44,343 nucleotides of DNA, taken from Anaerolineales bacterium (lineage in GTDB: Bacteria > Chloroflexota > Anaerolineae > UBA1429). Shown here in pieces: positions 349 through 20,466 of the stretch. How positions within the stretch are numbered: the stretch's first letter is position 1; the number at the start of each line of letters is the position of its first letter. The notes beneath the pieces were generated by a model. That model made no database searches, was not told where the DNA came from, and saw nothing but the letters and a program-made list of their open reading frames with translations. The translations under genes and the position numbers were made by a program. The stretch lies in contig JBDKSN010000024.1 in NCBI GenBank assembly GCA_039680625.1, positions 1-44,343 of the forward strand. Reading direction: 5' to 3'.

Positions 349-349
349 C

Positions 350-3965: not shown

Positions 3966-4983
3966 CGCCCCCCCTTAGGATCGTCTGGGCATCGAGCGCG
4001 CTGACTGTGGCCGCGCCCGTAGCGAACATGGCGGCGGTCAGTTGCGCCTGGATGACGGCCAGAGCGCGCTCGACGGCCTCGGCTGACTCGGCCGCGGCCG
4101 GCAGGAGGCCCGCGGCGACGCCCCCCAGGCTCGCGCCCAGTGCCAGACACTTGGCCAGGTCGACGCCAGTGCGCAGGCCGCCACTGGCGATGACGGGCAG
4201 GGTGGGGCAGGCCTCGACCACGGCGCGCAGCGATTCGACCGTGGTCAGCCCCCAACTGCGGAAGGGAGCGGCGACCTCAGCGATGAAGGGATCAGTGGCG
4301 CGCAGCCGCTCGACCTCGCTCCACGAGGTGCCGCCGGCGCCCGCCACGTCGAGGGCAGTTACGCCCGCCGAGGCCAGCGCAGCCGCCACCGGGCCGGACA
4401 GCCCCCAGCCCACTTCTTTGACGATGACCGGGAAGGGCACAACCGCGCACACCTCGGCGATGCGGTCGAGCAGCCCGCGAAAGGCGGTGTCGCCGCCCGG
4501 CTGGAGCGCCTCTTGCAGGGCATTGAGGTGCAAGATCAGTCCGTCGGCCTCGACGAGCTCGACGAGCCGCCGACAGTCCTGCGCGGTCAGGCCCTGGTTC
4601 AGTTGCACCGCGCCCAGGTTGGCCAGGAGCAGGATGTCGGGCGCGACGTCGCGCACACGAAACGTGGGCAGCGTGTCTGGTTCGAGCAGAGCGATGCGCC
4701 CCGAGCCCAGCGCCAGGGCCACGCCGGTGGCCTGCGCGGCTTGCGCCAGACGACGATTGATGCGCCCGCCCTCGGGCGTGCCGCCCGTCATCGAGGAGAG
4801 CAACAGGGGCATCGCCAAAGAGTGGCCCAAGAAGTCGGTTGCCGTCGAGACGTCGCGCAGGTTCAGGTCGGGCAGGGCGTTGTGCCGCAGACGAATAGCC
4901 TCGAGGCCGGTGGACAGGCACGAGCGGACGTCGGCAGACAGGCAGATGTAGAGGTGGTCTTGTTTGCGTTTGGCGTGGTCCAT
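3958..4983 (-). CDS. fni: Type 2 isopentenyl-diphosphate delta-isomerase (FMN-dependent)
   Basis: RKQDH, SSMTGG, GSGR, HLNALQE, KEVGWG, GAGGTSW, SGGLR motifs. Start reassigned to MDHAKRK at 4983; the ORF-track extension crosses the promoter. Confidence 0.93.
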   Translation of the reverse strand: MDHAKRKQDHLYICLSADVRSCLSTGLEAIRLRHNALPDLNLRDVSTATDFLGHSLAMPLLLSSMTGGTPEGGRINRRLAQAAQATGVALALGSGRIALLEPDTLPTFRVRDVAPDILLLANLGAVQLNQGLTAQDCRRLVELVEADGLILHLNALQEALQPGGDTAFRGLLDRIAEVCAVVPFPVIVKEVGWGLSGPVAAALASAGVTALDVAGAGGTSWSEVERLRATDPFIAEVAAPFRSWGLTTVESLRAVVEACPTLPVIASGGLRTGVDLAKCLALGASLGGVAAGLLPAAAESAEAVERALAVIQAQLTAAMFATGAATVSALDAQTILRGGDA

Positions 4984-4993
4984 CGTAGGGTCT

Positions 4994-5022
4994 AGTCTAG
5001 GGAGGGTGGGCGTTGTCGTCAA
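4994..5022 (-). promoter_or_regulatory. Putative sigma70 promoter of fni
   Basis: Minus strand TTGACG (5022-5017), N17, TAGACT (4999-4994), 10 nt before the ATG. Confidence 0.55.
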
Positions 5023-5028
5023 CCGGAG

Positions 5029-5058
5029 GAGGGGCGGGGCGGGCAGGCTTGCTGGCCG
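5029..5058 (+). repeat. Left copy of island-flanking direct repeat
   Basis: GAGGGGCGGGGCGGGCAGGCTTGCTGGCCG; matches 18983-19010 except for two extra G in homopolymer runs; 17 bp core GGCAGGCTTGCTGGCCG is identical. Confidence 0.8.
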
Positions 5059-5231
5059 TCGCGGCAATGGTGCTGCGCTCGCATGGAAGGGGATGTCGAG
5101 GCTAGAATAGCCGTACATGATCATCGGTTGTGTGCCCACTGGGAACCAGGTACAGGGGTCACGCTGGGCCAGTCTGCGTTCACCTGCTGCTCAACGTGGC
5201 GTGCCCATATCACGCCCGTCTGGAGACACTC

Positions 5232-7385
5232 ATGACTCTTTCCGCTCGCTCCTCGCTCGATGCTGACCTGCGTCTGCCGCACGAGCCCGTGCTTGTGGCC
5301 GTGCTCGCGTTTACCGTGGCGCTCGTTGTAGCCGACCCACGCCTCTCCACTGGCCGTGATGTGCCGTCCCTGGCGGCCATATTGTTTACCATCGCTGGAT
5401 CGGTGTGGCTGGTGGGTCACTGGCGACCGGCAAGCGCGCCATGGCTGGCCTGGCTCCTACTGGCCGCTACGCTGATGCTGACCCGCCTCTGGTGCGGTTG
5501 GCCAGGTCTGCTTACCCTGCTGGCCATCCCCACGGCTCTGGCGGGCGCCATGATATCCCCCTCGGCGGCAATGGTGGCGGCGGTGATACAGTCGGCCCTC
5601 CTGGGCATATGGCTCTCGGGTACGCTCCCGACGGGCGAGGGTGCCATCGCGTTGATCGCCGTGTGGGCTGGGGCCGGGCTGGTCGCAGCGTTGTTTCGCC
5701 CGGTGCGCCAGTTCGCCAACTGGTCGTGGGAGCACTATGCGCTTGGCCAGCAACTGCTTGAGGAGGCGCGCGAACGTCAGTCGCAGCTCAAGGACACCCT
5801 GGATGCCCTGGCCTACGCTAACCAACAGCTCGACCTGGCCAACCAGCGGCTCGCCGCAATGCGCAAGACTGCTGAAGAGGCTGAGCGCAGCAAGGCCGCT
5901 TTTGTGGCCAACGTTAGCCACGAGTTCCGCACGCCGCTCAACATCATCATCGGGCTGGCCGAGCTGCTCATGGACGCTCCGACTGTCTATGGCGCCGAGC
6001 TGCCCCCAGCGGTAAGACGCGACATTGAGGTCATGCATCGCAACTCCGAGCACCTCGCTAGCCTGGTCAACGATGTCCTCGACCTCAGTCAGGTGGAGAC
6101 GGGGAAGATGGCCCTGCAGCGCGAGTGGGTCGACTTGCCCGCACTGGTGAGATCGGCGGTGGCGATCGTCGAGCCGCTCATCCGCGAAAAGACCCTCCCT
6201 ATCGAGCTGCAGATCCCCTCGGATGTGCCCACGGTTTACTGTGATCCACGACGAATACGCCAGGTGGTGTTGAATCTCGTCAGTAATGCCGCACGCTTTA
6301 CCGAGCAGGGCGGTATCACCGTGACTATCCAGGCCAACGACGGCGTCGTGCGCGTTAGCGTGCGCGACACTGGCCCCGGCCTTACTGAGGCCGACCGCGT
6401 TCGCGTCTTTGAGCCATTCAACCAGGGTGGAACGTTGAGCGCGATGCGCAGTCACGGCAGCGGTCTGGGACTAAGCATCAGCCGTCAGTTCGTCGAGATG
6501 CATCAGGGGACTATCACTCTCGAGAGTGCGCCTGGGGTAGGGAGCGAGTTCGCGTTCACGCTGCCTATCGAACCGCCACCGGGACCTCGCGAGCCAGCAG
6601 AACGCTGGATCAGCGATGGCTGGGAAGCGCGCCGCGCGCGCGCGCGTGTGGTGCCCCCTCAGCTACAGAATCGCCTCATGCTGGTAGACACGGTAGGTGA
6701 TCTGCAACCCGTCCTCGAGCGCTACGCTCACGATGTGACCCTCGTGCCTGCGCATGATCTGGAAGAGGCGCAGGAACGCATGGCTACCGCGGCGACGGAG
6801 GGGTTGCTCGTGAACGCCCCTACCGTCGCCGCGCTATGGCCAGCGCTGGAAGCGGCTACGCGTGCGTTTCCCGATACGCCAGTAGTGGGTTGCGTGCTCC
6901 CCGCCGCCAATGCGCACGCGCTCGCTGCGGGTGCGCGTGGTTACCTGACCAAACCGCTCAACTATGAGATGCTTGCCGCCATTCTGGCCACCTTCAGCCC
7001 GCCGCCACGCCGCATCCTGTTGGTCGACGACGATCCCGACGCGCTCGACCTCATGTCTCGTCTACTTTCCCGCTCCGACGAGAGCATCGACGTGCTCACT
7101 GCTGACACGGGGCAGAGCACCTTGGCATGCATGTTAGCAGATACGCCCGATCTTGTGTTGCTCGACATCGTGCTGCCCGAGATGGTTGGTTGGCAGGTAC
7201 TGCAGCGTGCCCAGAACGATGAACGATTGCGCCGGATACCCGTGGTGCTCGTCTCAGCCCAAGATCCGCGGGACGAACCCCTCGCCAGCCCGCTCATTGT
7301 GGCGAGCATGGCTGGTGGTTTGTCGCTCACCAAGGTGCTACGTTGTTCGCAGACGCTGGCGGGCCTGCTGATGCAGCCAGACTGA
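5232..7385 (+). CDS. Membrane-bound hybrid sensor histidine kinase with two C-terminal receiver-like domains
   Basis: Multi-TM N-terminus, coiled coil, H-box VSHEFRTPL, N-box NLVSNA, DTGPG, GSGLGL; receiver LLVDDD...LLDIVLP. GGAG RBS before the ATG at 5232. Confidence 0.88.
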   Translation: MTLSARSSLDADLRLPHEPVLVAVLAFTVALVVADPRLSTGRDVPSLAAILFTIAGSVWLVGHWRPASAPWLAWLLLAATLMLTRLWCGWPGLLTLLAIPTALAGAMISPSAAMVAAVIQSALLGIWLSGTLPTGEGAIALIAVWAGAGLVAALFRPVRQFANWSWEHYALGQQLLEEARERQSQLKDTLDALAYANQQLDLANQRLAAMRKTAEEAERSKAAFVANVSHEFRTPLNIIIGLAELLMDAPTVYGAELPPAVRRDIEVMHRNSEHLASLVNDVLDLSQVETGKMALQREWVDLPALVRSAVAIVEPLIREKTLPIELQIPSDVPTVYCDPRRIRQVVLNLVSNAARFTEQGGITVTIQANDGVVRVSVRDTGPGLTEADRVRVFEPFNQGGTLSAMRSHGSGLGLSISRQFVEMHQGTITLESAPGVGSEFAFTLPIEPPPGPREPAERWISDGWEARRARARVVPPQLQNRLMLVDTVGDLQPVLERYAHDVTLVPAHDLEEAQERMATAATEGLLVNAPTVAALWPALEAATRAFPDTPVVGCVLPAANAHALAAGARGYLTKPLNYEMLAAILATFSPPPRRILLVDDDPDALDLMSRLLSRSDESIDVLTADTGQSTLACMLADTPDLVLLDIVLPEMVGWQVLQRAQNDERLRRIPVVLVSAQDPRDEPLASPLIVASMAGGLSLTKVLRCSQTLAGLLMQPD

Positions 7386-8559
7386 TGGCGTCATCGAGCG
7401 CGGCGAGCAACTGCTGTCGCCGGACGGGTTTGTTCACGCAAGCCGTGGCTCCGAGGGCAAGGGCGAGTTCCTCTTCGTGCACGACCGAGCAGACAATGAC
7501 CGGAATGCCGCGCGAGGCAGGATGCTCGTGGAGCTGCGTGAGCAACTCCCAGCCATCGACATCGGGCAGCATCAGGTCGAGCACGATGGCGCCGGGGCGT
7601 TCGCGGGCTAGGACCTCAAACACCCTTCGCCCCTCGGCCAAATGCACCATGCGGTAGATGGTGCCCGCCAAACACAAGCCATAGTAGTGCACGAGATCGG
7701 GATTGTCATCGAGAACAAGCACCTTGACGCTGCGCGTGGAAGGCAACGCAATCTGCAGGACCGTGCCGTCGCTGGCGATGCTCGTCTCGAGTGATCCCCC
7801 CTGCGTCTCGATCAACTCGGCGGCCACCCACTCGGCCGGCGGCTCGACGACAGCCGGTCGGGCTACAGCGCGCAAGAGAACCTCACTGGCACTCTCCTCC
7901 GCTGATAGGTCCACTGTGCCGCCCTCGAGCGATCGCACGAGGTAGCTCACCACAGCGATCAGGATCTGATGGAGCACGCTCGGGTGTACGATCACCGCGG
8001 CATTCGGGTCTACAGAGGCCAGGCGTACAGTGACGCCCCTGCGCGCACTCCAGCTCTTGGTCAGTGCCAGCGCCTCCTCCAGGGCTGGAAGCACCGAGGC
8101 CACGGCGTCCTGTTTGTGCGCACCAAGGGCGGCCACCTCGGCTTCGACCTGTTCGCTGACCCCAGAAAGTCTGCCGCTTGTGTCCGCGATGGAGGCAGCA
8201 CCCTCTTGGGCGACCAACTGTTGCGCCAGCATCTCGATAGCTGCATTCTGTTCACGCCCCAGGTGTCGCACCGTAATGGCCAGCCGTTGGGCGGTCTCGT
8301 CTTGCGTCAGGTGCTCGATGTAGCGCAGGCGTAGGATGTCATAGAGTCTCCAGGCGCGCGTGTCGCCAGGCACATCTGGCCCGGGTTGCATTCCGTCGAT
8401 GGCGCGCAAGAGCATTTCGCGAGCACGCACCATATCGGCGCCCACATCCCCGAGCGCCCGAGCCAGCACGTCTGGCACCGTCGACGTCGGGTCGTAGAGG
8501 TGGCTCAGGGCCTCGCGCAGCGCATTCACTAGTGGATCTGGGTCGTTTGTGTCAGGCAT
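7327..8559 (-). CDS. Response regulator: N-terminal sigma70-region-4-like HTH, degenerate HATPase-like middle, C-terminal receiver
   Basis: LRLRYIEHLTQDETAQRLAITVRHLGREQ (HTH); receiver VLDDNP...VLDLMLPDVDGW...NKP. Overlaps the kinase 3' end convergently by 59 bp. Confidence 0.82.
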   Translation of the reverse strand: MPDTNDPDPLVNALREALSHLYDPTSTVPDVLARALGDVGADMVRAREMLLRAIDGMQPGPDVPGDTRAWRLYDILRLRYIEHLTQDETAQRLAITVRHLGREQNAAIEMLAQQLVAQEGAASIADTSGRLSGVSEQVEAEVAALGAHKQDAVASVLPALEEALALTKSWSARRGVTVRLASVDPNAAVIVHPSVLHQILIAVVSYLVRSLEGGTVDLSAEESASEVLLRAVARPAVVEPPAEWVAAELIETQGGSLETSIASDGTVLQIALPSTRSVKVLVLDDNPDLVHYYGLCLAGTIYRMVHLAEGRRVFEVLARERPGAIVLDLMLPDVDGWELLTQLHEHPASRGIPVIVCSVVHEEELALALGATACVNKPVRRQQLLAALDDAISLAASAGPPASANNVAPW

Positions 8560-8603
8560 GTCAGGCGTGTGTCAGTCTGCAGTCAGCCGAGCGTCATGGT
8601 CAG
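8551..8603. promoter_or_regulatory. Phased GTCA(G) direct-repeat array, probable operator
   Basis: GTCA at 8551, 8560, 8571, 8582, 8593 and 8599; four copies are exactly 11 bp apart. The array straddles the regulator start codon, upstream of the divergent ABC operon. Confidence 0.6.
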
Positions 8604-8833
8604 CACTGCTTCGTTCGTTCATACTGTCCATAGCAAAGGCGACGTCGGGCGGCCACTAGCAATTGCCGCCCACCAGCGGCCTCACTGCCGCATGGCATCA
8701 TGGTAGTGGAGCGGTGTGTCGCCGTCAAGGGAGAGGTGCCCTGCCTGGGCACCTGGAAGGAGGGGCTCATCAACAGGACGAGTGTTCTCGGTCGCTGCTC
8801 ATCTGGGTGTCTATGGAGAGAAGGAGCTGAGAA

Positions 8834-10231
8834 ATGTCCATGCATCTGAACCGTCGGCAATTGTTGCGTTCGATGGCTGTGGGTACAGCAGGGGTGGTTC
8901 TTGCCGCCTGCCAGCCCAAGGTCGTCGAGAAGGTCGTCAAAGAGACGGTGATCGTCGAAGGCACGCCCAAGGTCATCGAGAAGACCGTGGTCGTCGAGAA
9001 AGAAGGGCCGCCTCCGACGGCGGCCAAGTATGAGAAAGTGATCGTCTGGGGGTGGTGGGAGCCGCGCATGGCGTTCTATCAAGATGCGGCCAACGCTTTG
9101 ATGGATCAGAACCCCGATATCGAGGTCGAGGTCATCAGTCTGCCCGGCGATCAACTGTGGTCCAAGGTTCTTCCCGCCACTGCCGCGGGCACCGGCCCCA
9201 CACTGCTCAAGCAAAAGCCGACCTACTACTTTTCATTCCTCGACAATGGGCTGCTTGAGCCCTATCCGGAAGAGATCTTTCCTATCGACTGGTGGAAGAC
9301 CAATTTCCCCGACACGTGGGACATCTATGGCAAAGAGGGCCGGCAGTACGTCTACCTCGACGGCTCGATGGCCAACTTGCTGATGTACAACCGCACGATG
9401 TTCGAGGCCGTCGGTCTCGACCCGCAAACACCCCCAGTCAGCTGGGATGAGTTGATCAACATGGGCAAGCAGCTCACCAAGACGGATTCCGCCGGCACGA
9501 TCCTGGAGGAGGGCTTGATCCTCGGCGAGTACCCGTGGATCAACGCGGTCTATCAGCTCGGGGGCAGCCTGGTGAACATCGCCGACGATGGCACGCGTAC
9601 GTCAGCCATGCTATCCGAGCCGGCCGTCAAGGCCTTTACCTGGTTGTGCGAGCTCTATACCAAACACAAGATCTCTTCCCGTGAGTTCCTCACCTATGAG
9701 GAGGCCATCGGCACCTCCAAGGCTGCTATGGGCCTGATGACGAGCTGGATCGTGGGCACATTCGACACGACCTATCCGGACGTCGCCGCTGTGCTGGGCT
9801 GGGCGCCCCCGCCCACGCCGACCGGCAAGCCTGAGCCTGTGTGGGGCTACAAGACCAATGTGCTCGCCCTGACGATGTTCCAGAACCGGCCGGTCATGGA
9901 GAAGGAAGCTGGCTTTGTGTATCTGGATTGGCTGCTCAATAACTCGGACAAGTCTCTGGCAGATATCGCCGAGATCACGGGCTGTCTACCGGGGAAGCTG
10001 TCCGTGCGTAGCGATCCTCGCTTCACGGCCAAAGAGGCGTTGCGCGTAGCCATCGACACGTTGCCTCTGGAGAAGAGCTCGGTCATGGAGAGCGAGAACT
10101 TGAACGCAGTACGCGACAACGCCATCAACCGCGTTGTGCTCGAGGGACAGAGTATCGAGGAATCTCTCGCGATCGCTGATCAGGAATGGAACCAGTGGCT
10201 CGCTGAGGGCGATGCGTCGCACATGGCCTAG
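8834..10231 (+). CDS. Carbohydrate ABC transporter substrate-binding lipoprotein (CUT1)
   Basis: Twin-arginine NRRQLL plus lipobox LAAC; VEKVVKETV linker; YNRTMFEAVGLDP..PP.SWDE motif; AAGGAG RBS. Confidence 0.9.
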   Translation: MSMHLNRRQLLRSMAVGTAGVVLAACQPKVVEKVVKETVIVEGTPKVIEKTVVVEKEGPPPTAAKYEKVIVWGWWEPRMAFYQDAANALMDQNPDIEVEVISLPGDQLWSKVLPATAAGTGPTLLKQKPTYYFSFLDNGLLEPYPEEIFPIDWWKTNFPDTWDIYGKEGRQYVYLDGSMANLLMYNRTMFEAVGLDPQTPPVSWDELINMGKQLTKTDSAGTILEEGLILGEYPWINAVYQLGGSLVNIADDGTRTSAMLSEPAVKAFTWLCELYTKHKISSREFLTYEEAIGTSKAAMGLMTSWIVGTFDTTYPDVAAVLGWAPPPTPTGKPEPVWGYKTNVLALTMFQNRPVMEKEAGFVYLDWLLNNSDKSLADIAEITGCLPGKLSVRSDPRFTAKEALRVAIDTLPLEKSSVMESENLNAVRDNAINRVVLEGQSIEESLAIADQEWNQWLAEGDASHMA

Positions 10232-10242
10232 ACTGGTCTTGT

Positions 10243-10273
10243 TTGCCAGAGGCCCCATCGGGGCCTCTGGCAA
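10243..10273 (+). terminator. Perfect 14 bp stem-loop after the SBP gene (mRNA-stabilising or partial terminator)
   Basis: TTGCCAGAGGCCCC-ATC-GGGGCCTCTGGCAA. Confidence 0.75.
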
Positions 10274-10310
10274 GGGTCTTTGGAGACATCCCTGAAAGGG
10301 GGCGCCGTAT

Positions 10311-11240
10311 ATGGCTCTCTCAGCTATCCGTCGGGCAAACCAGACCGCAGGCCGAGCGCGTCGGGCACGCCTCGGCGGCCCACAGAGACGCTTTGTCTGG
10401 TCCGTGCTAGGACCTTGCATCCTCTTCTACCTGATATTCCGCTTCTACCCGTTTGCCAATGCGCTGATCATCAGCTTTCGCGAGTACAACATCGTCTCGC
10501 CCGTCAAGCCATTCGTTGGCTTGGACAACTATGAGAAGATCTTTAACAACACGGTGTTCCGTGCCGCCATTGTCAACAGTTTTTACTATGGCGTGGTGAC
10601 GACGATCGTCGGCCTGATCGTGTCGCTGGCCGTGGCCTTGCTCATCAACGGCCTGCCTCGCTTCAAAGACGCCTTCCGCGCGATCTTTTTCCTGCCGCAG
10701 ATCACCAATGCCATCGCCGTAGCCATGGTTTGGGGATGGCTCTACCAGCCAGTCTATGGTTTTTTCAACCAAGTGCTCAAAGTGTTCGGGCTGCCGGTGA
10801 TCGGCTGGCTTACCTCACCTCAATACGCTATGCCCAGCCTCATGGTCATGGGCATCTGGGGCGGGGTAGGCATGAGTGTGGTAGTGCTGATGGCCGGGTT
10901 GGCGGGCATCCCCAGCGTCTATCGTGAGGCCTGCATGATCGACGGTGGCAACCGCTGGCACATCTTTCGCTATGTCACCTTGCCCCTCTTGCAGCCCACC
11001 CTGGTCTTTATCCTCGTCACCGGTTTTATGGGTGCGTTTGAGCTCTTTTCCTCTGTGTTCGTGCTCACGCAGGGCGGCCCGCTGAACCGGACTTATGTGC
11101 TGGCCTACTACATCTACCGACGTGCGTTCGTTGACCTCAAGATGGGCGAGGCGTCAGCGGCAGGCTTTGTGATGTTCGTCTTGGTACTCGCGATCACGAT
11201 CATCCAGTTGCGCTTTATGCGGACGCGCTGGGAATACTGA
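10311..11240 (+). CDS. Carbohydrate ABC transporter permease (MalF/UgpA-like)
   Basis: FVGLDNY; EAA-loop YREACMIDGG; TQGGP; multiple TM segments. Confidence 0.92.
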   Translation: MALSAIRRANQTAGRARRARLGGPQRRFVWSVLGPCILFYLIFRFYPFANALIISFREYNIVSPVKPFVGLDNYEKIFNNTVFRAAIVNSFYYGVVTTIVGLIVSLAVALLINGLPRFKDAFRAIFFLPQITNAIAVAMVWGWLYQPVYGFFNQVLKVFGLPVIGWLTSPQYAMPSLMVMGIWGGVGMSVVVLMAGLAGIPSVYREACMIDGGNRWHIFRYVTLPLLQPTLVFILVTGFMGAFELFSSVFVLTQGGPLNRTYVLAYYIYRRAFVDLKMGEASAAGFVMFVLVLAITIIQLRFMRTRWEY

Positions 11241-11279
11241 GCCGCAGCCAGAGGGCGGTAAGTGCAGAAAGGAGCCCAT

Positions 11280-12113
11280 ATGGGTAGACAAACGACGGAT
11301 CGGTTGATGCACGCCATCGCCTATGTGTTGCTGGCGCTTGGCTCGATCATGATGCTACTGCCATTCTACTGGATGGTCATCACCTCGATCAAGATCCCGT
11401 CGGAGGTAGTCACATTCCCGCCGACCTGGGTGCCCTCGGTGGTGACCTTTGACCACTATGTGCGCGTATTCCGAGATCTGGCGGTCGGCATTCTGTATCG
11501 CAACAGCGCCGTCGTTGCCATCACCAAGACGTTGCTCATGGTATTCACCAGCGCCCTGACGGGCTATGTGTTTGCCAAGTTCAGCTTCAAGGGGCGCGAC
11601 CTCATCTTCTCGGCCATCATCGCGACGATGATCATCCCGTTGCAGGTGTATATGATCCCCCTCTATCTGATGATGGTGGATTTTCAGTGGCACAACACCT
11701 ACACCGGGTTGATCATGCCCTACGTCTTTAGCGCGTACGCCATGTTCCTGGTGCGCCAGTTCATGCACAACATCCCGAGCGAATTGATCGAGGCGGCGCG
11801 CATAGACGGTGCGGGCGAGCTGCGCATCTTTCTGCGTATCGTGATGCCTCTCAGCCAGGCAGTGCTGGCCACGCTGGTCATCTTTTACTTTATGTGGAAC
11901 TGGAATGACTTCTTGTGGCCGTTGGTAGTGCTGAATAGCCCGAACAAGTATACCCTGCCGATCGGGCTGACCGTGTTCAACAGCGAGTATGGCACTGACT
12001 ATGGCGCCACCATGGCCGCCGCGTCCATCGCCGTGATCCCGGTGATGATCGTGTTCTTTGTGTTTCAGCGTCATATCGTCGAGGGCGTAGCGCTCACCGG
12101 CCTCAAGGGCTAG
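11280..12113 (+). CDS. Carbohydrate ABC transporter permease (MalG/UgpE-like)
   Basis: ELIEAARIDGA, WNDFLWP, GLKG end; AAAGGAG RBS before the ATG at 11280. Confidence 0.93.
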   Translation: MGRQTTDRLMHAIAYVLLALGSIMMLLPFYWMVITSIKIPSEVVTFPPTWVPSVVTFDHYVRVFRDLAVGILYRNSAVVAITKTLLMVFTSALTGYVFAKFSFKGRDLIFSAIIATMIIPLQVYMIPLYLMMVDFQWHNTYTGLIMPYVFSAYAMFLVRQFMHNIPSELIEAARIDGAGELRIFLRIVMPLSQAVLATLVIFYFMWNWNDFLWPLVVLNSPNKYTLPIGLTVFNSEYGTDYGATMAAASIAVIPVMIVFFVFQRHIVEGVALTGLKG

Positions 12114-12164
12114 GAGCATCGCTAGAGCTGCGAACCGCCTCTCAGCACGCGTGAGGAGTGGACA

Positions 12165-13064
12165 ATGTCCAAACGGTATCTGACTCATGAGGAGTTTTTC
12201 GACGACACCTTGCCGCCATACGCCACCGGAGAGCGGCGCCTAGCCTGTCTGGGCCTGCAGGTGCCCTTTCCTCTGACTTACCTTGTCACGATGGACCGGC
12301 ACACCCGTGACGTTCGCGTGACCACGGCGACGCTAGGCCCTTTTAGCTGGGTGCCCTATACGATGTCGGTCAACATTCCGCTTGGCGACGAGCCGACTGT
12401 CGCCAATCTGCGCGCCGAAGGCGAATGTGTGATGGCCTTACCCACACGCACACAGGCTCGCCAGGCCTGGATCGCCTCACATATCTATCCCGCGGGCATC
12501 AACGCCGCTGAGGTGGCTCGTCTCACGATGGCGCCGTCTCACCGCGTACAGGTGCCGAGCATTGTCGAGTGCCCCGTGAACTTTGAGTGCATCATCGAGT
12601 ACGTCCGCATGTACCACGGCTATGGTATTGCCGCCCTCCGCGTGGTGGGCGCGACCCTGGATGATGAGGTGCTGCCGTTGTCACGCGAGGCGCTCAGCCA
12701 GCTCTATCCCATCAACTATGTTGGTGAGCGCGTCTATGGCGACGGTACGGTCAGCGCGCGCCTGGCGATGATGGGTACGATCACACCGTGTCCAACCTTT
12801 CCCGTTGGGCACAAACAAGGTTGGGATACGCGAGTGCCCACCTGGGTGGCCGATCTCGTGGCTGAGGAGTTCATCTCGAGGCGAGAGGGAGACCTGGTGA
12901 TGGCCTGGCTCGCGGACTATGAGAGGATGCGGCTCGACCCGCATCTCGCTGAGCGTCAGGACTTGCAAGACAAGCTCACGACTTTTGCCGAGCTGGCGGC
13001 CTGGGGCGAATGGGAAGCCCTGCACGCCTACCTGGGCATCGAACCGCCGGAGGCGCGGTCATGA
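12165..13064 (+). CDS. Flavin reductase-like (FMN split-barrel) protein with C-terminal extension, paralog 1 (subtype B)
   Basis: SWVP, GIN...ARLTMAPS.RV.VPSIVECPVNFEC motif typical of flavoredoxin/flavin reductase-like proteins; GAGGAG RBS. Confidence 0.75.
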   Translation: MSKRYLTHEEFFDDTLPPYATGERRLACLGLQVPFPLTYLVTMDRHTRDVRVTTATLGPFSWVPYTMSVNIPLGDEPTVANLRAEGECVMALPTRTQARQAWIASHIYPAGINAAEVARLTMAPSHRVQVPSIVECPVNFECIIEYVRMYHGYGIAALRVVGATLDDEVLPLSREALSQLYPINYVGERVYGDGTVSARLAMMGTITPCPTFPVGHKQGWDTRVPTWVADLVAEEFISRREGDLVMAWLADYERMRLDPHLAERQDLQDKLTTFAELAAWGEWEALHAYLGIEPPEARS

Positions 13065-13975
13065 AAGTGTTCTACACGCACGACGAAATCGAACAACGCT
13101 ATCCCTACCTCGTCCCCGGCATCGAGGAACCCTCGCACCGCCATTTCGCTTTTCAGCCGGCGCGGCCCGCGAATCTCCTGGTGAGCCTGGATCGGGTGAC
13201 GGGCGAGATCAACGTCTCAGCGGGCACCATCGGGCCACTAAGCTGGGACCCTTACACGATCGCGATCCACTGTAGCAAGTCCAGCCTGGACAGCAGCGCC
13301 AATATCCAGCAGGTGGGCGCTGAATGTGTCGTGGCGCTACCGGGAGACGACATCATCCCCCAGACCTGGATGACAGCGCTCAACCTCCCGCGCGGCGTCA
13401 ACGAAGCCAAGGTGGCGCGGTTGACGCTCTATCCCTCGCGCCTGGTCAAGGCGCCCAGCGTCGCCGAGTGTCCGGTCAATCTGGAGTGTGTGGTAGAGTA
13501 CTACCGTGAGCAGCACTCGCACTTTATCGCTTTCCTGCGCATCCTCGGCGCCAGTATCGACGAGTCGCTACTGACAGAGGATCCTGACGCCGCCATGCAC
13601 CGCTTCCCCACCTGGGAAGTCGACGACGTCGACAACACGTGGCATGGCTCGGTGGAGCGGCTCGGCGTGTTGGGCGAGTTTCTGGCGGTACCGCGCGTGC
13701 GCCCGGCGCGTGGCTGGGGCGGACGTCTAGAGGATTGGCTGCTCGACCTGCGTCAGACCGGTGAGCTGAGCGAGCAAGAACTGCAGACAGCTAACGCCTG
13801 GCTGAAGCGATGGAACAGTCTGGCTGATGTACGGCCCGCCGCTTGGAGCGACACCGGCGTCGAGTCCGACAAGGCCCGAGAGCGCGAGCAGATGCATCAA
13901 CGCATCACCCGGCTATGCACGCTGATGGCCTGGGACGAGTTGGATGAGCTGCATCGCCTGCTCCAGGCTGGCTGA
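13061..13975 (+). CDS. Flavin reductase-like protein with C-terminal extension, paralog 2 (subtype A)
   Basis: Start MKVFYTHDE via ATGA overlap with paralog 1; GEINVS, DSSANI, GVNE, PSRLVKAPSVAECPVNLEC, H in HSHF. Confidence 0.8.
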   Translation: MKVFYTHDEIEQRYPYLVPGIEEPSHRHFAFQPARPANLLVSLDRVTGEINVSAGTIGPLSWDPYTIAIHCSKSSLDSSANIQQVGAECVVALPGDDIIPQTWMTALNLPRGVNEAKVARLTLYPSRLVKAPSVAECPVNLECVVEYYREQHSHFIAFLRILGASIDESLLTEDPDAAMHRFPTWEVDDVDNTWHGSVERLGVLGEFLAVPRVRPARGWGGRLEDWLLDLRQTGELSEQELQTANAWLKRWNSLADVRPAAWSDTGVESDKAREREQMHQRITRLCTLMAWDELDELHRLLQAG

Positions 13976-14011
13976 TCGAGTCTCAAGAAGCCAATGTCCA
14001 AGGAGACAGAC

Positions 14012-17000
14012 ATGACCGAGCTTGAGACCCGCGCGGTGTGCCTGCCGGGCGGCGAGCGGCCCGTGCTCTGGGCGGGCGATGTGGTGGTGGCGGGCGCATC
14101 CTTTGCTGGCCTGTCGGCTGCGCTAGCGCTGGCTGGTTCGGGACGTCGGGTGGCCATCATCGAGCCACGCACCTACCCAGGGCGTGAGCTAACGGCGACC
14201 CAGCGGCCGTGGCTTCTTGAAGATGTAGGATCAGAAACGCCATTGATCGCCAGTTGCCTGGCGTTGCCCGGCAATGTGCGGCATGGAGGCGAGGTGGCTC
14301 TGCACCCTGATCAGCTCAAGATCTACGTCGAGGACGTACTCGCCGCGGCGGGTGTGGAGTTGTTCTATGCCACCCATGCCGTCGGCCTCTTGACGGGTGA
14401 CGGTGCTGTTCAGGGGCTGGTGGTAGCGAACAAGTCAGGCCGACAGGTGCTGCTGGCCTCTGTGCTGGTGGATGCGACGGAGACAGCCCTGCTGGCTCGT
14501 TTGGCGGGGGCAAAAGTTGCGCCTGACATGACCCCTACCGTCTACCGGCGCACGCTCGAGTTCGGCGGCGTCGGCGAAGACGTTAGCGAGACGCTCGACG
14601 TACCCGCCACGCTGGGCCTGGTGGGGAACCGCGTTGAATGCCATCGAGGGGTGCAAGGGGCAGGGCACTGCTATGTAGACTATGCTGTAGCCTGGCCGCG
14701 GCGGGCCACAACCATGCCTGAGGCTGCCGCTCTCAAGGCGAGCCTGGAGGCCACTGGGCTGGCGTTGACGGTCTATCTGCGCGACCATGTGCTGGCGTTC
14801 GCGCCGCCTGCCATCATTGGCTTTTCGTCGTACGAACCTGCCGGGCCACTCTGTGGGCCGCTGTCCGCCGGTGCCTCGCTGCCCGAAGGCCTGTGGCTGC
14901 TCAATGAGTCTTCGGCCGATGGCACGGACTATGCTGACGCGCGTGCCGCGGCCCGTCGGGGCGAGGAGCGAGGGCGCCAAATCGCTGAGTGTATTCGGCC
15001 GCCTCGCCGCTCGTCGGCGAGTGCGACAGAGCCTTTGACCGGCGGGCAACCTAGTTTGACTGTGCGCGAGCAGAGTGTGCCGCAGCGTGGTCGGGCGTAT
15101 CCGTTCGCTGTGGTACCTGAGGAATCCCTGCCGGTGGTGCTGTCGCGCGATATCCTCGTCGTGGGCGGTGGCTCCAGCGGCGCGATGGCCGCCATTGTCG
15201 CTGTCGAGGAGGGCGCCTCGGCAGCCGTCGTGGACATGAACCCGGGCCTCGGGGGCACAGGCACTTATGGCGGCATCAACACTTACTGGTTTGCGCGCCG
15301 CTTTGGCTTTGTCGACCGCTTGATGGGCTGGCTAGATGAGATCCATGACCGCCTATACATTCGCCGGCCTCAGGGCGTAATGGCCCACTGGAACGTCGAG
15401 GCGCGCGTGCAGGCGCTGCGCGAACAGGCCGAGCGTGCGGGCGTCAAGACCTTGCTCAATGCGCTCGCCTTTGGCGCCGTGCTTGAAGGGCAGCATGTGC
15501 GTGGTGTCGCGGCCGCGACTCCCTATGGCCCAGTGGTCGCTCTGGGCCGCGTGGTGCTCGATGCTACCGGCGACGCAGATGTGGCGGCCTGGGCGGGGGC
15601 CGAGGCGACGTATGGCTCTGCTCGGGAGCATGTAGTGATGTGGGGCTACATGCCACAGCTCGCCGCGCCAGACCAACCCCGCAACGTCAAGACCAGCATG
15701 GTCGATACGACCAACATCGCCGACTACAACCGTATGATCCGCGCCGAGCGACGCCGCGCTGGATCTGGCGACTATGATCATGGGGTGTATCTCGCCCCAC
15801 GCGAAAGTCGGCACATCCAGGCCGAGGTAGTGATGACGCTCACCGATCAGCTCACCCGGCGCTGTTGGCCCGATGTGGCCTATATCGCCTTTAGCAATTA
15901 CGACATGAAGGGCGAGGCCACGTCGGATTGGGTGCGTATGGGCCTCCAGCCGCCTAACCTGACGATGGAGATCTCTTATCGGTCGTTGGTGCCCAAGGGG
16001 GTGGAGGATATCTTGGTGGTGGGCAAGGCCTTTGCCGCCACGCACGACGGCGTAGCCGCCCCACGGATGCAGCCCGACATGGAGAACCTGGGCGGTGTAG
16101 GCGCGGTGGCGGCGGCTCTGGCCTTGCGCGAGCGAACCTCGGTGCGTGCGCTGAATGTACGTCACCTGCAAGAGCGTCTTGTCGGCCTGCGAGTGTTGCC
16201 CGCAGACGTTCTGACGCGCCAGCTGGCACCACTCAGGTTCACACGCGCTGAGCTCGAGCGCCAAGTTGCCGAGATCGATGGCAAGCGTCCGTTGGCCGAC
16301 TATTCGGCCCAAGAGATCGGGGAGCCGTATCCGGGGCGGGTGCCCGAGGTGGACGTGATGTGCGCTGGCCCAGAAGCCATCCCCGTGCTGGAGGCTGCTC
16401 TGGCCACAGCGGCCGGCCGTCGCAAGACGCGCCTGGCGCAAATGCTGTGCGTGTTGGGATCGCGAGCGGGCGTCGAGCACCTTGTCGGGGTGCTACATGA
16501 AGCGTTTAGCGGGTCTGCGCTACCCGATCGGCCATACAAGGTCATGCATCAAGGCCCACCGCCCGATCAGGGCGCCGACACTGAGGAGGCGCATCTACTC
16601 ACCACGCTGGCTATGGCCGGCGATGACCGCATTCTGCCGTTGTGGCAGCGGGTGGTCGATCTGTTGGACGGCACGACTCGTGAAGACATCTTTGATCCGG
16701 CGAAGGACCGGCTCGGCTATGCCGCGGCTGTGGCCTACGGCGCAGAACGCCTGGGCGATCCGCGCGCCGTGCCCATTCTGCGGCAGCTGCACAGCTATCC
16801 GCTGTTCGGGGGCCTGCGCTCGACCTCAGGCCAGCAGGCGGACTGGTTCCTCGAGCGGCTCGCGTATGGCGAGCTGCTCACGGGGCGGGCATTGGCTCGA
16901 TGTGGCAGCCCCGAGGGATTCATCATCCTGATCAACTATCTCGAAGATGTGCGCGCCTCACTGGCCGAGCACGCCCACGAGGAGCTGATCAGCATCACGG

Positions 17001-17167
17001 GCGAGGACTATGGCAAAGATGTCTCGGCGTGGGCCGCCTGGCTGGAGCAGACAGCCGATCAACTAGAGCCGCGGCCCTATCATGCTACACCCGAGCCGGT
17101 GGCGGCTTGGCGCGAGTGCATTCTCGTCGAGGCCGATGCCCCTCGGCCATCGGCGCCACAAGCATAG
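14012..17167 (+). CDS. Large FAD-dependent oxidoreductase: two tandem FAD_oxidored (PF12831-like) modules plus C-terminal HEAT-like helical region
   Basis: Module 1: DVVVAGASFAG...NKSGRQ...VDATE. Module 2: DILVVGGGSSG...GGTGTYGG...DATGDAD...PRESRHI...ISYRSLVPKGVEDILVVG. C-terminus ALARCG...LISITGEDYGKD..AW..W. AAGGAG RBS before 14012. Confidence 0.82.
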   Translation: MTELETRAVCLPGGERPVLWAGDVVVAGASFAGLSAALALAGSGRRVAIIEPRTYPGRELTATQRPWLLEDVGSETPLIASCLALPGNVRHGGEVALHPDQLKIYVEDVLAAAGVELFYATHAVGLLTGDGAVQGLVVANKSGRQVLLASVLVDATETALLARLAGAKVAPDMTPTVYRRTLEFGGVGEDVSETLDVPATLGLVGNRVECHRGVQGAGHCYVDYAVAWPRRATTMPEAAALKASLEATGLALTVYLRDHVLAFAPPAIIGFSSYEPAGPLCGPLSAGASLPEGLWLLNESSADGTDYADARAAARRGEERGRQIAECIRPPRRSSASATEPLTGGQPSLTVREQSVPQRGRAYPFAVVPEESLPVVLSRDILVVGGGSSGAMAAIVAVEEGASAAVVDMNPGLGGTGTYGGINTYWFARRFGFVDRLMGWLDEIHDRLYIRRPQGVMAHWNVEARVQALREQAERAGVKTLLNALAFGAVLEGQHVRGVAAATPYGPVVALGRVVLDATGDADVAAWAGAEATYGSAREHVVMWGYMPQLAAPDQPRNVKTSMVDTTNIADYNRMIRAERRRAGSGDYDHGVYLAPRESRHIQAEVVMTLTDQLTRRCWPDVAYIAFSNYDMKGEATSDWVRMGLQPPNLTMEISYRSLVPKGVEDILVVGKAFAATHDGVAAPRMQPDMENLGGVGAVAAALALRERTSVRALNVRHLQERLVGLRVLPADVLTRQLAPLRFTRAELERQVAEIDGKRPLADYSAQEIGEPYPGRVPEVDVMCAGPEAIPVLEAALATAAGRRKTRLAQMLCVLGSRAGVEHLVGVLHEAFSGSALPDRPYKVMHQGPPPDQGADTEEAHLLTTLAMAGDDRILPLWQRVVDLLDGTTREDIFDPAKDRLGYAAAVAYGAERLGDPRAVPILRQLHSYPLFGGLRSTSGQQADWFLERLAYGELLTGRALARCGSPEGFIILINYLEDVRASLAEHAHEELISITGEDYGKDVSAWAAWLEQTADQLEPRPYHATPEPVAAWRECILVEADAPRPSAPQA

Positions 17168-17186
17168 CTAGAAGTAGGAGAAAGCC

Positions 17187-18092
17187 ATGGCCAAGTTGTT
17201 CGTGACCAAAGAGTTCATGCGCTCGTCGCCGACCGTCCAAGGGGTGCTGGATCACCGCCAAGTGCACTTTCACTTTCGGCCGGTGCGACCAGCCGATATC
17301 GTCGTCTCGCTAGATCCCGTCTCGGGCGAGGTCAACCTGGCTGCTGGCACCTATGGGGTGACCGCCTGGAATCCGCTGACTATCGGCCTACACATTCACA
17401 AGAGCAGCTATGACAGTCAGCGCAATGTCGCCGCCGCGGCGCCGGGCACAGGCTTGGTGGTCGCCCTCCCCAGTCGCGACCTGGTGCGCGAGACCTGGTT
17501 CACCTCGATGCCTATTCCACGGGGTATCAACGAGGGCGACCTGGGCCATCTGACCATGGTGCCCTCGCAGCTGATCGAGCCGCCCTCTATCGCCGAGTGC
17601 CCCGTCAACCTAGAGACGGTGATCGAGCGCATCGACCTCTATGGCATCCACCACATCGTCCTCTGCCGCGTGCTCGGTGCCCGCATCCAGGACGAAGTCG
17701 TGAGTGCTGACCGGCTATCGACCTTGCGGTGCTACCCGACGCACGAGTGCGATGACATCGACAATGCATGGCGCGGTGCTGTGGAGCGCCTAAGCCTTGT
17801 CGGCGAACTGCTGCCATGCCCGCAGTTCCCCTGTGGCCCACGGCGCGGACTGCAAGGCACTCTTGACGAGTGGATCGCAGAGCTGGGCGCTGCGGGGCTG
17901 ATCACCGCCCAGGGCCAGCATCTTTTCGAGGCCTGGACGGCCCGCTGGCGCCAAGTGGCTCAAGAGGCAGCCGCCCCCGAGCGGGCCGCGCTGCGCACCA
18001 GGCTGTCGCGCGCTATCGAACTGGCCGCCTGGGAAGAGTTCTCGCAATTGAACGCCTATCTGGCGGCCGAAGGAGAGGAGGAGCACCCATGA
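17187..18092 (+). CDS. Flavin reductase-like protein with C-terminal extension, paralog 3 (subtype A)
   Basis: GEVNLA, DSQRNV, GINE, PSQLIEPPSIAECPVNLE, GIHH; closest to paralog 2. Confidence 0.8.
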   Translation: MAKLFVTKEFMRSSPTVQGVLDHRQVHFHFRPVRPADIVVSLDPVSGEVNLAAGTYGVTAWNPLTIGLHIHKSSYDSQRNVAAAAPGTGLVVALPSRDLVRETWFTSMPIPRGINEGDLGHLTMVPSQLIEPPSIAECPVNLETVIERIDLYGIHHIVLCRVLGARIQDEVVSADRLSTLRCYPTHECDDIDNAWRGAVERLSLVGELLPCPQFPCGPRRGLQGTLDEWIAELGAAGLITAQGQHLFEAWTARWRQVAQEAAAPERAALRTRLSRAIELAAWEEFSQLNAYLAAEGEEEHP

Positions 18093-18961
18093 GCGCGAGT
18101 TTCTACACACACGAGGAGCTTCAGACCGGTGTGCCCGGGCTGGCCGATCCACAGCAGCTGCTCTACTCGGCCAGTGGCCCGATGCCAGCGCTCATCTTGG
18201 TGTGGCGGCATCCGGTGACTGACGAGCTATTGTTGCGCTACACCACGATGACGCCCCTCAGTTGGGAGCCATTCTCGATGATGGTCACCGTGCCGCAGAG
18301 CGATACCCAGACGGCCGACACCCTGCGCGTTGGCGCCATCTGTGTCATGGCCTGGGGCGGACGCCAAACGGCGCGCGCGCATTACCTCGCTGCCCTCGAT
18401 CTGCCCGTTGGCCTTGACCAGCTAGCCATCGCCCGTCTGCACCCGGTCGCGTCGCCTTATGGGCCAGTACCGCATCTGCGCGAGTGCCCGCTCAACGTGG
18501 AATGTCATGTGGATCGCATTGTCAACCACAATGGTTGGCGAAACTATTGGCTGATCGTCGACTGTTTTAGCCTCGATGAGGAGATCCTGCCTTTGCCGCG
18601 CGAGGTGGTGTTGCAGCGCTACCATCTCTACCAAGCCGACCGTGTGGGCAACGGTCAAGGTGGCCAGCAATTGCGACTTGGCATGGCCAGCGAGCTGAGC
18701 GAATGCCCGCGATTCCCCGTAGGCCCCAAGTCTGGCTGGTACTCGATATTCCCTCGCTGGGTAGACGAGCTTCGCGATGAGAGTTACCTCTCGCTCACGG
18801 AGCACGACAAACTCATCGCCTGGCACGACCGATATCTTGCCCTGTTCGACCAGGTGGCCAACCCAGAGCGCGTGACACTGCACGAGCAACTTACCTCCGC
18901 TTGCGAGGCCATCTGTTGGCAGGAATGGCCACACCTACATGCCCTACTAGCCGAACCCTAG
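18089..18961 (+). CDS. Flavin reductase-like protein with C-terminal extension, paralog 4 (subtype B)
   Basis: Start MSASFYTHEE via ATGA overlap with paralog 3 (GAGGAG RBS); SWEP, PHLRECPLNVEC; closest to paralog 1. Confidence 0.72.
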   Translation: MSASFYTHEELQTGVPGLADPQQLLYSASGPMPALILVWRHPVTDELLLRYTTMTPLSWEPFSMMVTVPQSDTQTADTLRVGAICVMAWGGRQTARAHYLAALDLPVGLDQLAIARLHPVASPYGPVPHLRECPLNVECHVDRIVNHNGWRNYWLIVDCFSLDEEILPLPREVVLQRYHLYQADRVGNGQGGQQLRLGMASELSECPRFPVGPKSGWYSIFPRWVDELRDESYLSLTEHDKLIAWHDRYLALFDQVANPERVTLHEQLTSACEAICWQEWPHLHALLAEP

Positions 18962-18982
18962 TATCGTCGGCAAGTCCACTGA

Positions 18983-19020
18983 GAGGGCGGGGCGGCAGGC
19001 TTGCTGGCCGCTCCTCCCTC
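18983..19020 (+). repeat. Right copy of island-flanking direct repeat (18983-19010), forming part of a hairpin (18983-19020)
   Basis: GAGGGCGGGGCGGCAGGCTTGCTGGCCG; 18983-18996 pairs with 19007-19020 (one mismatch, one G-U). Confidence 0.78.
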
Positions 19021-19053: not shown

Positions 19054-19082
19054 TTGCACTCTGATGGCAGGCTCGCTACAAT
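19054..19082 (+). promoter_or_regulatory. Putative sigma70 promoter of the MATE gene
   Basis: TTGCAC-N17-TACAAT. Confidence 0.6.
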
Positions 19083-19110: not shown

Positions 19111-20466
19111 TTGTCGGCCCCAAGCGCCCGCGATCTCGTCACCGGCAGCGTCTATCGCCACATCGTGCGTCTGGCCACGCCCACGGCCATCGAGCAGGCA
19201 CTGCTGGCGATCACCGGCCTCATCCATGCCTTTTGGATGGATCGGGTAGGCCCCTATGCGCTCTCGGCGGTCGTCATGGGCACGGCGATGCGCATCGTCC
19301 TGATCAGCCCGATGATGGGCCTCTCTGCGGGTGGCATGGCGGTGGTGGCGCACGAGATCGGTGCGCGCAACCGACTGGCTGCCGACCGCGCTTGTACGCA
19401 GACGCTGACTCTAGTCATGCTGATGGCCCTGCCCCTGATGGCCATCGGCCAGGCCTTTGCGCCGGTGTTCCTACGGTGGATGGGCGCCACAGGCGAGATC
19501 CACGCCAACGCCACGCAGTACGTGCGCATCATCCTCTGGGGCTTGTTCTTTATGGAGTGCCTGCCCACGATGAACGGGGTGATCCGCGGTGCGGGCCGGC
19601 CCGAGTTCACTTTGCGCATCACCATCGTGAGCCGCGTGGTGTTCTTTGCCCTCGAACCGATCCTGGCCTTTGGGCTGGGGCCGGTGCCCGTGCTCGGAGT
19701 GCGCGGTGTGGCGCTAGCCGAGGTGGTGGCCAACGCCGTGGGTGTCGGCGCGCAGCTGGTGGTGTTGCTCTCCAAAGACGGCTGCCTGACCTTGCGGCTC
19801 AGTGACCTCGCGCCCGACTGGGCGATGATGCGCCGGGTCATCCGCATTGCGCTGCCCAACTCGGCCCAGCGGCTCTCGCCGAATCTGGCCAATGCGCTGT
19901 TCCTGCGTCTCGTCGCGAGCCTGGGCCTCACCGTTCTGGCGGCCTATAGTGTGTTCACCCAGATCCAGACACTGGTGCAGGGGATCGTCGCCGGCCCGCA
20001 GTCGGCGGCCGCGACGATGGTCGGGCAAAACCTGGGCGGCGGGCAGCCAGAGCGTGCAGTACGCTCGGCGTGGTTCGGTGCAGCGCTCGGCGCGGCGCTG
20101 CCGCTATGCCTATATGCGATCATCAACCTGGCGAGCGGCCTGCTCTTGCCGATGCTCAACCGCGACCCGCAGGTGGTCGTTGCGGCGCGGCAGGTGCTGA
20201 CCTTTGCGCTGGCCTTTGGGTCGCTCAACGGACTATGGCTCGTGCTGGGCAATGCCCTGGCCGGCGCGGGAGATGCCGGCGTGCCCTCGCTCATCAGCAT
20301 TGTCAGCCTCTGGGCCGTGCAGCTCCCCGTCTGTTCCCTATTGGCTCACCGAGCGGGCCTGGGCCCAACGGGCGTATGGCTGGGCATGATCCTCGGCAAC
20401 CTGGTGTGTGCCGCGGGCATGGCCTACCGCCTGCGCTCTGGGCGGTGGCAAGAGATTCGCGTCTAG
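19111..20466 (+). CDS. MATE family efflux transporter
   Basis: DLVTGSVYRHIVRLATP start, IRGAGRP, ATMVGQNLG, GVWLG, RSGRWQ end; ~12 TM. TTG start after GAGGAG (alternative GTG at 19099). Confidence 0.88.
   Translation: MSAPSARDLVTGSVYRHIVRLATPTAIEQALLAITGLIHAFWMDRVGPYALSAVVMGTAMRIVLISPMMGLSAGGMAVVAHEIGARNRLAADRACTQTLTLVMLMALPLMAIGQAFAPVFLRWMGATGEIHANATQYVRIILWGLFFMECLPTMNGVIRGAGRPEFTLRITIVSRVVFFALEPILAFGLGPVPVLGVRGVALAEVVANAVGVGAQLVVLLSKDGCLTLRLSDLAPDWAMMRRVIRIALPNSAQRLSPNLANALFLRLVASLGLTVLAAYSVFTQIQTLVQGIVAGPQSAAATMVGQNLGGGQPERAVRSAWFGAALGAALPLCLYAIINLASGLLLPMLNRDPQVVVAARQVLTFALAFGSLNGLWLVLGNALAGAGDAGVPSLISIVSLWAVQLPVCSLLAHRAGLGPTGVWLGMILGNLVCAAGMAYRLRSGRWQEIRV

Follow-up and report, generated by a model that had tools for sequence, protein, structure and literature searches.

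What sets the limits of a gene block that carries no recombinase of its own, and did such a block arrive as one piece? The question is raised by contig JBDKSN010000024.1 of an Anaerolineales bacterium (assembly GCA_039680625.1), on which a direct repeat of 28–30 bp brackets ten genes for a sensor, a regulator, a sugar-type transporter and flavoenzymes, lying between the isomerase gene fni and a gene for a MATE efflux transporter. The window analysed here is the entire 44,343-bp metagenomic contig, and all copy counts hold for this window only. A first-pass annotation, made from the letters alone, had proposed that the repeat is an att-like or target duplication that marks the acquisition of the block en bloc. 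We find that the repeat is real, that a step in codon composition accompanies each of its copies, and that site-specific integration is, tentatively, the preferred account of its origin. Overall, the interpretation of the block as an island whose boundaries enclose ten genes and exclude fni and MATE is partly supported.

A direct repeat and a compositional step at both edges of the block

The two copies of the repeat and the palindrome to which they belong are located as follows.

5029..5058, left repeat copy, 30 nt, in the divergent spacer between fni and the hybrid histidine kinase (HK) gene; holds the 5' arm and loop of the palindrome, with the outer 3' arm missing
18983..19010, right repeat copy, 28 nt, starting 21 nt past the stop of the last block gene; the gapped alignment begins at 18981
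18983..19020, plus strand, complete imperfect palindrome or hairpin of 5+8+2 pairs with a 5-nt loop; −29.1 kcal/mol (45-nt window)

When the two spacers are aligned locally with gaps, 29 of the 31 columns are identical. The sole differences between the copies are two single-G gaps, each within a G-run, with zero substitutions; both strings are thus present at 5029–5058 and 18983–19010 and differ in the way that the first-pass annotation had described. The exact core common to both copies is a 17-mer at 5042–5058 and 18994–19010. Allowing up to 2 mismatches on both strands, this 17-mer occurs twice in the window, against a mean of 0.07 in 100 dinucleotide shuffles of the window, none of which (0/100) reached 2. 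The repeat finder reports the pair as family D14 with a spacing of 13,952, while the 19 other listed families are look-alikes of 64–85%. Additionally, short-word blastn with the 42-nt right site against the window returned the site itself, the left copy, and otherwise matches of at most 14 nt. The window contains 19 spacers of at least 30 bp, and full repeat copies lie in exactly the two that bound the block; by simple arithmetic, the chance that two random spacers among the 19 are this pair is 1/171. These data confirm that the direct repeat is real and beyond chance.

The block and its immediate neighbours are listed below with the GC content at third codon positions (GC3), which was computed on Pfam-checked genes, leaving out wrong-frame open reading frames (ORFs; 28761, 31196, 39717 and a long GNAT ORF).

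3958..4983, minus strand, left flank, fni, type 2 isopentenyl-diphosphate isomerase (TIGR02151, 378 bits against a cutoff of 281); GC3 0.857
5232..7385, plus strand, block gene 1, hybrid HK with HisKA, HATPase and C-terminal receiver domains; GC3 0.740
7327..8559, minus strand, block gene 2, response regulator of 410 aa with an N-terminal HTH-like region and a C-terminal receiver; GC3 0.737
8834–10231, plus strand, block gene 3, sugar-type ABC solute-binding protein; GC3 0.794
10311–11240, plus strand, block gene 4, permease; GC3 0.765
11262–12113, plus strand, block gene 5, permease; GC3 0.824
12165–13064, plus strand, block gene 6, Flavin_Reduct-like paralog; GC3 0.737
13061–13975, plus strand, block gene 7, Flavin_Reduct-like paralog; GC3 0.784
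14012..17167, plus strand, block gene 8, FAD-dependent oxidoreductase of 1051 aa (PF12831); GC3 0.734
17187–18092, plus strand, block gene 9, Flavin_Reduct-like paralog; GC3 0.775
18089–18961, plus strand, block gene 10 (FR4), Flavin_Reduct-like paralog; GC3 0.729
19111..20466, plus strand, right flank, MATE efflux transporter, with its TTG start taken from the public twin P0241; GC3 0.843

Beyond these, the left flank continues on the minus strand, where fni stands with genes for a polyprenyl synthase and a class A penicillin-binding protein, while the right flank after MATE comprises an acetyltransferase, a P-type ATPase, a racemase and ordinary metabolic genes.

The block differs from its surroundings in GC3, which ranges from 0.729 to 0.824 inside (mean 0.762, n=10) and from 0.777 to 0.866 in the flanks (mean 0.828, n=24; Mann-Whitney p=6.7e-5). 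Of all runs of 10 genes in a row, it is exactly that from HK through FR4 which has the lowest mean, with a permutation p of 5e-5 (20,000 permutations of gene order). Specifically, no neighbouring genes differ more than fni (0.857) and HK (0.740) at the left edge and FR4 (0.729) and MATE (0.843) at the right edge, and both of these steps fall at the repeat-bearing spacers, so that the compositional shift which the first-pass annotation had suggested looking for across the boundaries is present. Gene class does not explain the offset, since a two-component pair in the flank (37157–39709) has normal values of 0.839 and 0.855, against 0.737 and 0.740 for the pair in the block. The flank-type composition of MATE and fni places both genes outside the block, which agrees with the proposal that the repeat delimits the system and leaves MATE out. 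An overall GC dip at 8.5–12.5 kb was also considered as a sign of foreign origin and rejected, as it arises at codon positions 1 and 2 of the binding-protein and permease genes and not from GC3.

A single metagenomic contig whose composition changes exactly at a repeat could in principle be a chimera joined through the motif, or the likeness of the two copies could be fortuitous. Against a chimera, the longest exact run shared by the copies is just 17 nt. Assemblers usually work with longer words than this, and long-read overlaps are far longer still. All genes across both junctions are intact, and chance predicts only the 0.07 copies given above. We regard an assembly artefact or chance similarity as hardly credible.

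Proposed integration at a palindromic site

Together with 19011–19020, the right copy forms a 15-pair stem, 21 nt past the stop of FR4, which ends at 18961; this is the distance that had been reported. The left copy folds only into an inner stem of 5+3 pairs. Common to both copies are the left arm and the centre of the palindrome, with 5 nt of its right arm, after which they diverge; the observation that only the right copy keeps the 3' arm of the hairpin (5+8+2 pairs against 5+3) holds on refolding. When the outer flanks are joined by coordinates, they give a divergent fni/MATE spacer of 175 bp with one complete hairpin, the compact region that had been foreseen for removal of the block. The joined spacer folds at −33.6 kcal/mol (60-nt core), compared with −28.9 kcal/mol for a 58-nt stretch around the present right site.

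An att-like junction duplication, left by site-specific integration with a recombinase that acted in trans or has been lost, is the best single explanation of these features, although we place it slightly short of an even chance. In such an event, segment 5059–19010 would have reached the spacer upstream of fni, as a newcomer or by relocation, through a single reciprocal crossover, with a GC-rich palindromic site of ~30 bp on a circular intermediate joining the same site on the chromosome (Campbell-type). The crossover would duplicate the shared part of the site. The right junction would have kept the whole palindrome, which would now also serve as the stem-loop behind the last operon of the cassette, while the left junction would have kept, besides the 5' arm and the centre, just 5 nt of the 3' arm. 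As no recombinase lies in the block, the enzyme would have acted in trans or been lost, which would make the block a decayed island resembling a cis-mobilizable element (CIME). We infer the integration event, the circular intermediate, the recombinase in trans and the direction of change (gain versus an ancient arrangement) from these arrangements.

Several properties of the repeat fit such an event. A length of 28–30 bp is the right size for the core shared by attL and attR after a circle has integrated, and a full palindrome on one side fits the core site of a recombinase, with two inverted arms around a crossover region. That no substitution separates the copies points either to an event of recent date or to selection acting on both; the left copy, which lies between divergent genes and shows G-run slippage only, fits a recent duplication. 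As in genomic islands, direct repeats are found at both boundaries, and the composition differs inside with steps at these points. Other hallmarks of genomic islands, namely an integrase beside a boundary and, as target, a tRNA or tmRNA gene or the 3' end of a conserved gene, are absent here. Target duplications of transposons are short, 2–15 bp, and a duplication of this type is unlikely to have produced a 28–30 bp repeat that comes with neither terminal inverted repeats nor a transposase. Hence, from the initial wording of an att-like or target duplication, the first part stands as the best reading and the second is dropped.

Protein matches point weakly in the same direction. Both flank genes have close public twins. 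That of fni, 94% identical, lies on a contig of up to 8,350 bp and is followed by matches of 71, 67 and 66%; that of MATE, 100% identical, lies on one of up to 3,586 bp and is followed by matches of 66–69%. The oxidoreductase, apart from its own entry, which is a singleton, has best matches of 68%, 59% and 55%. The presence of close twins for the flank genes and of none above 68% for the oxidoreductase weakly suggests a patchy distribution of the block; the evidence is weak because only proteins of 581–1850 aa were candidates, and short contigs would truncate the gene. Homologues of the oxidoreductase with a length of ~1050–1100 aa occur in Anaerolineae, Thermomicrobiales, Paenibacillus and Neobacillus.

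Relatives, stem-loops and promoters: the case for other readings

A number of observations weigh against integration, and several of them favour other readings of the same repeat. They begin with the relatives, in which the first-pass annotation had predicted an empty site with fni beside MATE. A genome scan with fni as query and 10-kb flanks was made, and the best 80 of 456 confirmed relatives were kept; these loci all come from records of metagenome-assembled genomes (MAGs), nearly all labelled as Anaerolineae or another Chloroflexota group. A MATE homologue lies near fni in none of the 80 loci (tblastn, E<=1e-3), and the predicted empty site was therefore not met with in this set. By the criterion of the first-pass annotation, its absence counts against the proposal, but the loci of the set are only 51–64% identical in fni and too distant to decide the matter. 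Sequence upstream of fni extends for at least 2 kb in 69 of the 80 loci and for at least 5 kb in 56, and the transporter and flavoenzyme genes of the window are found there in 0/80, as is nothing of its right flank. On the other side, a polyprenyl synthase gene follows fni in 72/80 loci and a penicillin-binding protein gene (PBP1A) in 10/80, as judged by tblastn. Each of the 10 loci that were inspected, which were those sharing the PBP1A synteny or ranking highest in identity, has a different gene upstream of fni, and in 5 of these 10 Pfam assigned this gene no family; the neighbours include DegV, a SEC-C protein, a peroxiredoxin-glutaredoxin fusion, GH4, a CARDB protein, an Ig-like domain protein beside a GH43 gene, and unknowns. 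Since the fni side is conserved and the upstream side variable among relatives, the block sits at a synteny break.

Two of these loci carry a further feature upstream of fni. A tyrosine-recombinase-like gene with Phage_integrase domains (L004, 6668–7672) lies ~2.3 kb upstream of fni and beside a histidine kinase gene, and an ORF of the same length and position occurs in L014 (4047–5051).

The search for means of mobility was likewise negative. Pfam and NCBIfam scans of all 10 block genes found no recombinase or remnant of one, as had been stated for the block, and none was found in the adjacent flank genes; the same scans detected no transposase or phage domain in the block, where every spacer is at most 274 bp long. 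No tRNA or tmRNA that could serve as target was found in the window (ARAGORN, 0) and no Rfam match was obtained (0), both repeat copies being intergenic. No inverted repeat is present in the 200 nt inside each copy, where the best score of 17 equals the shuffle mean of 17.0. Also, with the twins set aside, block and flank proteins stand equally far from their nearest homologues, so that no foreign donor is visible. A plasmid origin was considered and set aside: the block has no megablast match among 72,556 plasmids, and the oxidoreductase gives just 1 weak partial plasmid match (17% coverage, 30% identity).

Windows of 91 nt around the copies fold no better than dinucleotide shuffles (z −0.64 and −0.24), and the hairpin is therefore a feature of the sequence and not a statistical outlier in GC-rich DNA. 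The position of 18983–19020 fits an intrinsic terminator, but it has no T-run and the terminator scan made no call there. Five other spacer stem-loops, at 10244, 24201, 30027, 32738 and 41777, have energies of −28 to −37.5 kcal/mol; four of them (24201, 30027, 32738 and 41777) lie behind gene 3' ends, and that at 10244 is inside an operon. Set beside these, the right copy has the look of a usual operon-end stem-loop of this organism, with an ordinary job. The oddity is that half of this stem-loop recurs at the other end of the block, between divergent genes that need no terminator.

Repetitive extragenic palindromic (REP) sequences and bacterial interspersed mosaic elements (BIMEs) are dispersed intergenic palindromes, and the repeat could be a low-copy element of this sort, two members of which flank the block by chance or served as short homology for recombination. 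The likeness lies in a GC-rich imperfect palindrome in spacers, with one copy truncated in the manner of decayed REP copies. Unlike a dispersed family, the repeat has just two full copies in the 44 kb and 19 spacers of the window, which are exactly the two that bound the block. The exact 17-mer is found in 0/80 related loci (1.26 Mb), where one 17-nt blast match, in L015, is offset from but overlaps the core and lies in a coding region, presumably aconitase-like from its translated motif. Moreover, the five other strong hairpins are all unique in sequence and unrelated to the repeat, so that the stem-loops of the window are not drawn from one repeat family. We consider a REP-like origin improbable.

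The surroundings of the two copies in turn bring the promoters into view.

4994..5022, minus strand, promoter-like site of fni, TTGACG-17-TAGACT, called by the promoter scan
19054..19082, plus strand, putative MATE promoter, TTGCAC-17-TACAAT, proposed by the first-pass annotation and uncalled by the scan
19066..19077, plus strand, third, partial copy of the repeat core (11/12 bases), between the putative MATE −35 and −10

The left copy begins 6 bp beyond the −35 box of fni, in agreement with the site called at 5022..4994. The right copy ends 43 nt before the proposed −35 box of MATE (19054); this distance is correct, but the promoter was passed over by the scan because only 3/6 bases match in its −35 hexamer. 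Within this putative promoter, 72 nt downstream of the right copy, lies the third, partial copy, which corresponds to the 12-nt start of the core with 1 mismatch. With up to 1 mismatch, the 12-nt core has 3 matches in the whole window against 0.47 expected; with up to 2 mismatches, 3/9 matches are intergenic, spacers making up 5.1% of the window. No match is present in the spacer between the regulator and transporter genes (8560–8833), even at 3 mismatches. The partial copy inside the MATE promoter hints at a cis-regulatory word.

The repeat would then be a functional cis-element, either a protein-binding word or an insulating stem-loop, that was copied locally and kept by selection in the fni/HK and FR4/MATE spacers with no insertion at all. 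If so, the control of fni or of the kinase gene would be linked with that of MATE. It would account for the finding that all 3 core matches with up to 1 mismatch lie in promoter-bearing spacers on the plus strand, for a left copy that abuts the −35 box of fni and a right copy in terminator position, and for the zero substitutions between the copies. However, the sites of one regulator rarely share 28/28 aligned bases including a G-rich flank, and the spacer at 8560–8833, where the regulator of the block should act, has no copy within 3 mismatches. By our reading, the downstream −10 lies ~44 nt from the left copy but ~66 nt from the right one. No regulator gene adjoins MATE, and the GC3 steps are left unexplained. 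We judge a cis-element without insertion to be unlikely.

One related locus bears on the age of the block. L011, in which fni is 58% identical to that of the window, has three genes (3–5426) in the order and orientation of the window, 3.8 kb upstream of fni. Its kinase is 32% identical over 627 aa, and its regulator, which has the architecture of that in the block, is 26% identical over 396 aa, while its binding protein is unrelated to that of the window (20%). The GC3 of this module is 0.65–0.69, against 0.72–0.78 on the fni side. It could thus be that modules of this sort are low in GC3 as a rule, or that their linkage to fni is old. As proof of an old linkage, L011 is weakened by the size of the family to which the N-terminal part of the regulator belongs, with 1891 clusters at E<=0.001 and 674 at E<=1e-10 (representatives of 50%-identity clusters). 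Many of its members, at 30–54% identity, are closer than the regulator of L011, which in so large a family may be a paralog that is there by chance.

On these grounds the block could be native and old, and the repeat a scar of internal rearrangement (tandem duplication of the cassette end plus deletion, or relocation) without horizontal transfer. The equal distance of block and flank proteins from their next-nearest homologues, the similar module near fni in L011 with the same GC3 offset, and the lack of mobility genes would all fit this history. Against it, substitutions would be expected before long in a left copy that has no evident role, and the GC3 steps are abrupt and do not reach beyond the block, class-matched regulators in the flank being normal. 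A native block appears to us quite improbable.

Relation to elements without an integrase

Because no recombinase is present, the closest known kinds to which an integrated block can be compared are CIMEs, the ssrA islands of Dehalococcoides, and integrative mobile elements exploiting Xer (IMEX). CIMEs are described as elements that have lost the genes for integration and transfer and kept attL and attR (as outlined in PMC5704250). Similarly, our block has direct repeats at both ends, carries cargo only and differs in composition from its neighbours; from its sequence, it appears to retain putative attL and attR repeats without integration or transfer genes. It differs in that no integrative and conjugative element (ICE) or integrative and mobilizable element (IME) with the same site occurs in the 44 kb, and in that its site does not coincide with the end of any tRNA or protein gene.

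The Dehalococcoides islands belong to the same phylum, Chloroflexota. In the account given in PMC3146451, they are bounded by a 20-bp direct repeat of the end of the tmRNA gene, and 15 are without an integration module. To the extent that this account describes them, they share with our block catabolic cargo of atypical codon usage, a short boundary repeat and a break in synteny. They differ in their target, which is ssrA where ours would be an intergenic palindrome, and in the serine recombinase module, of which there is none near our block.

IMEX, such as the gonococcal genetic island, are reported to use the Xer recombinases of the host and to lie between dif and a degenerate dif-like site of 28 bp that shares one arm and the centre (from the description in PMC5357621). 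The block resembles such elements, as described there, in having no integrase of its own and in a site of ~28 bp that is a full palindrome on one side and one arm plus centre on the other; the right site is the full palindrome, and the left has its 5' arm and centre but just 5 nt of its 3' arm before it diverges. The differences from that description are also clear, since the arms are ~14–16 bp around a centre of 5–10 nt here, compared with 11-6-11 in dif, and the site is very GC-rich. Furthermore, dif is a unique site, bound by Xer, that sits at the replication terminus, and nothing places the palindrome at 18983–19020 there. The mismatch in arms and centre and the lack of placement at the terminus make this only the boldest option, and we think it very improbable that the palindrome is the site of a host tyrosine recombinase (Xer-like or another housekeeping enzyme) and the block an element of this type. 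Were it true, Chloroflexota would gain their first element of this type and a pointer to the target site of the recombinase of this lineage, with a catabolic cassette moving among Anaerolineae without an integrase of its own.

If integration as set out above is correct, the repeat would fix the limits of a regulator-transporter-flavoenzyme system that travels as a unit in a poorly known phylum, and the 38-bp palindrome would be a concrete recombination site to seek in other Anaerolineae genomes. The block would then add one more island without an integrase to the few described in Chloroflexota, a kind already known. Either way, the value lies mostly in the annotation of this locus, and no general principle is changed. 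The literature on islands of Anaerolineae yielded nothing on this locus among the matches listed.

The block genes show some further features, and the system as a whole may be catabolic. Four Flavin_Reduct-like paralogs of ~300 aa surround the PF12831 oxidoreductase (12165–18961), with weak Pfam matches and no NCBIfam family. The kinase and regulator genes are convergent, and their 3' ends overlap by 59 nt (7327–7385). Around and just upstream of the start codon of the response regulator, the word GTCAG is seen, by eye, to be repeated several times (8549–8590). The spacer between the regulator and transporter genes contains perfect 7-bp inverted repeats at 8647–8653/8665–8671 and at 8735–8741/8747–8753, which, from their sequence and position, are candidate operator sites for the regulator of the block. 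Further downstream in the operon, a perfect hairpin of 13 pairs at 10244–10272 (−31.7 kcal/mol) separates the binding-protein gene from the first permease gene and could raise the message of the binding protein relative to those of the permeases.

A last observation concerns the set of related loci. One of them, L056, is labelled as a MAG of a Methanosarcinales archaeon, and its fni-polyprenyl synthase locus together with a downstream regulator agrees in layout and coordinates with the Anaerolineales loci L049 and L055; the archaeal bin probably contains a foreign contig.

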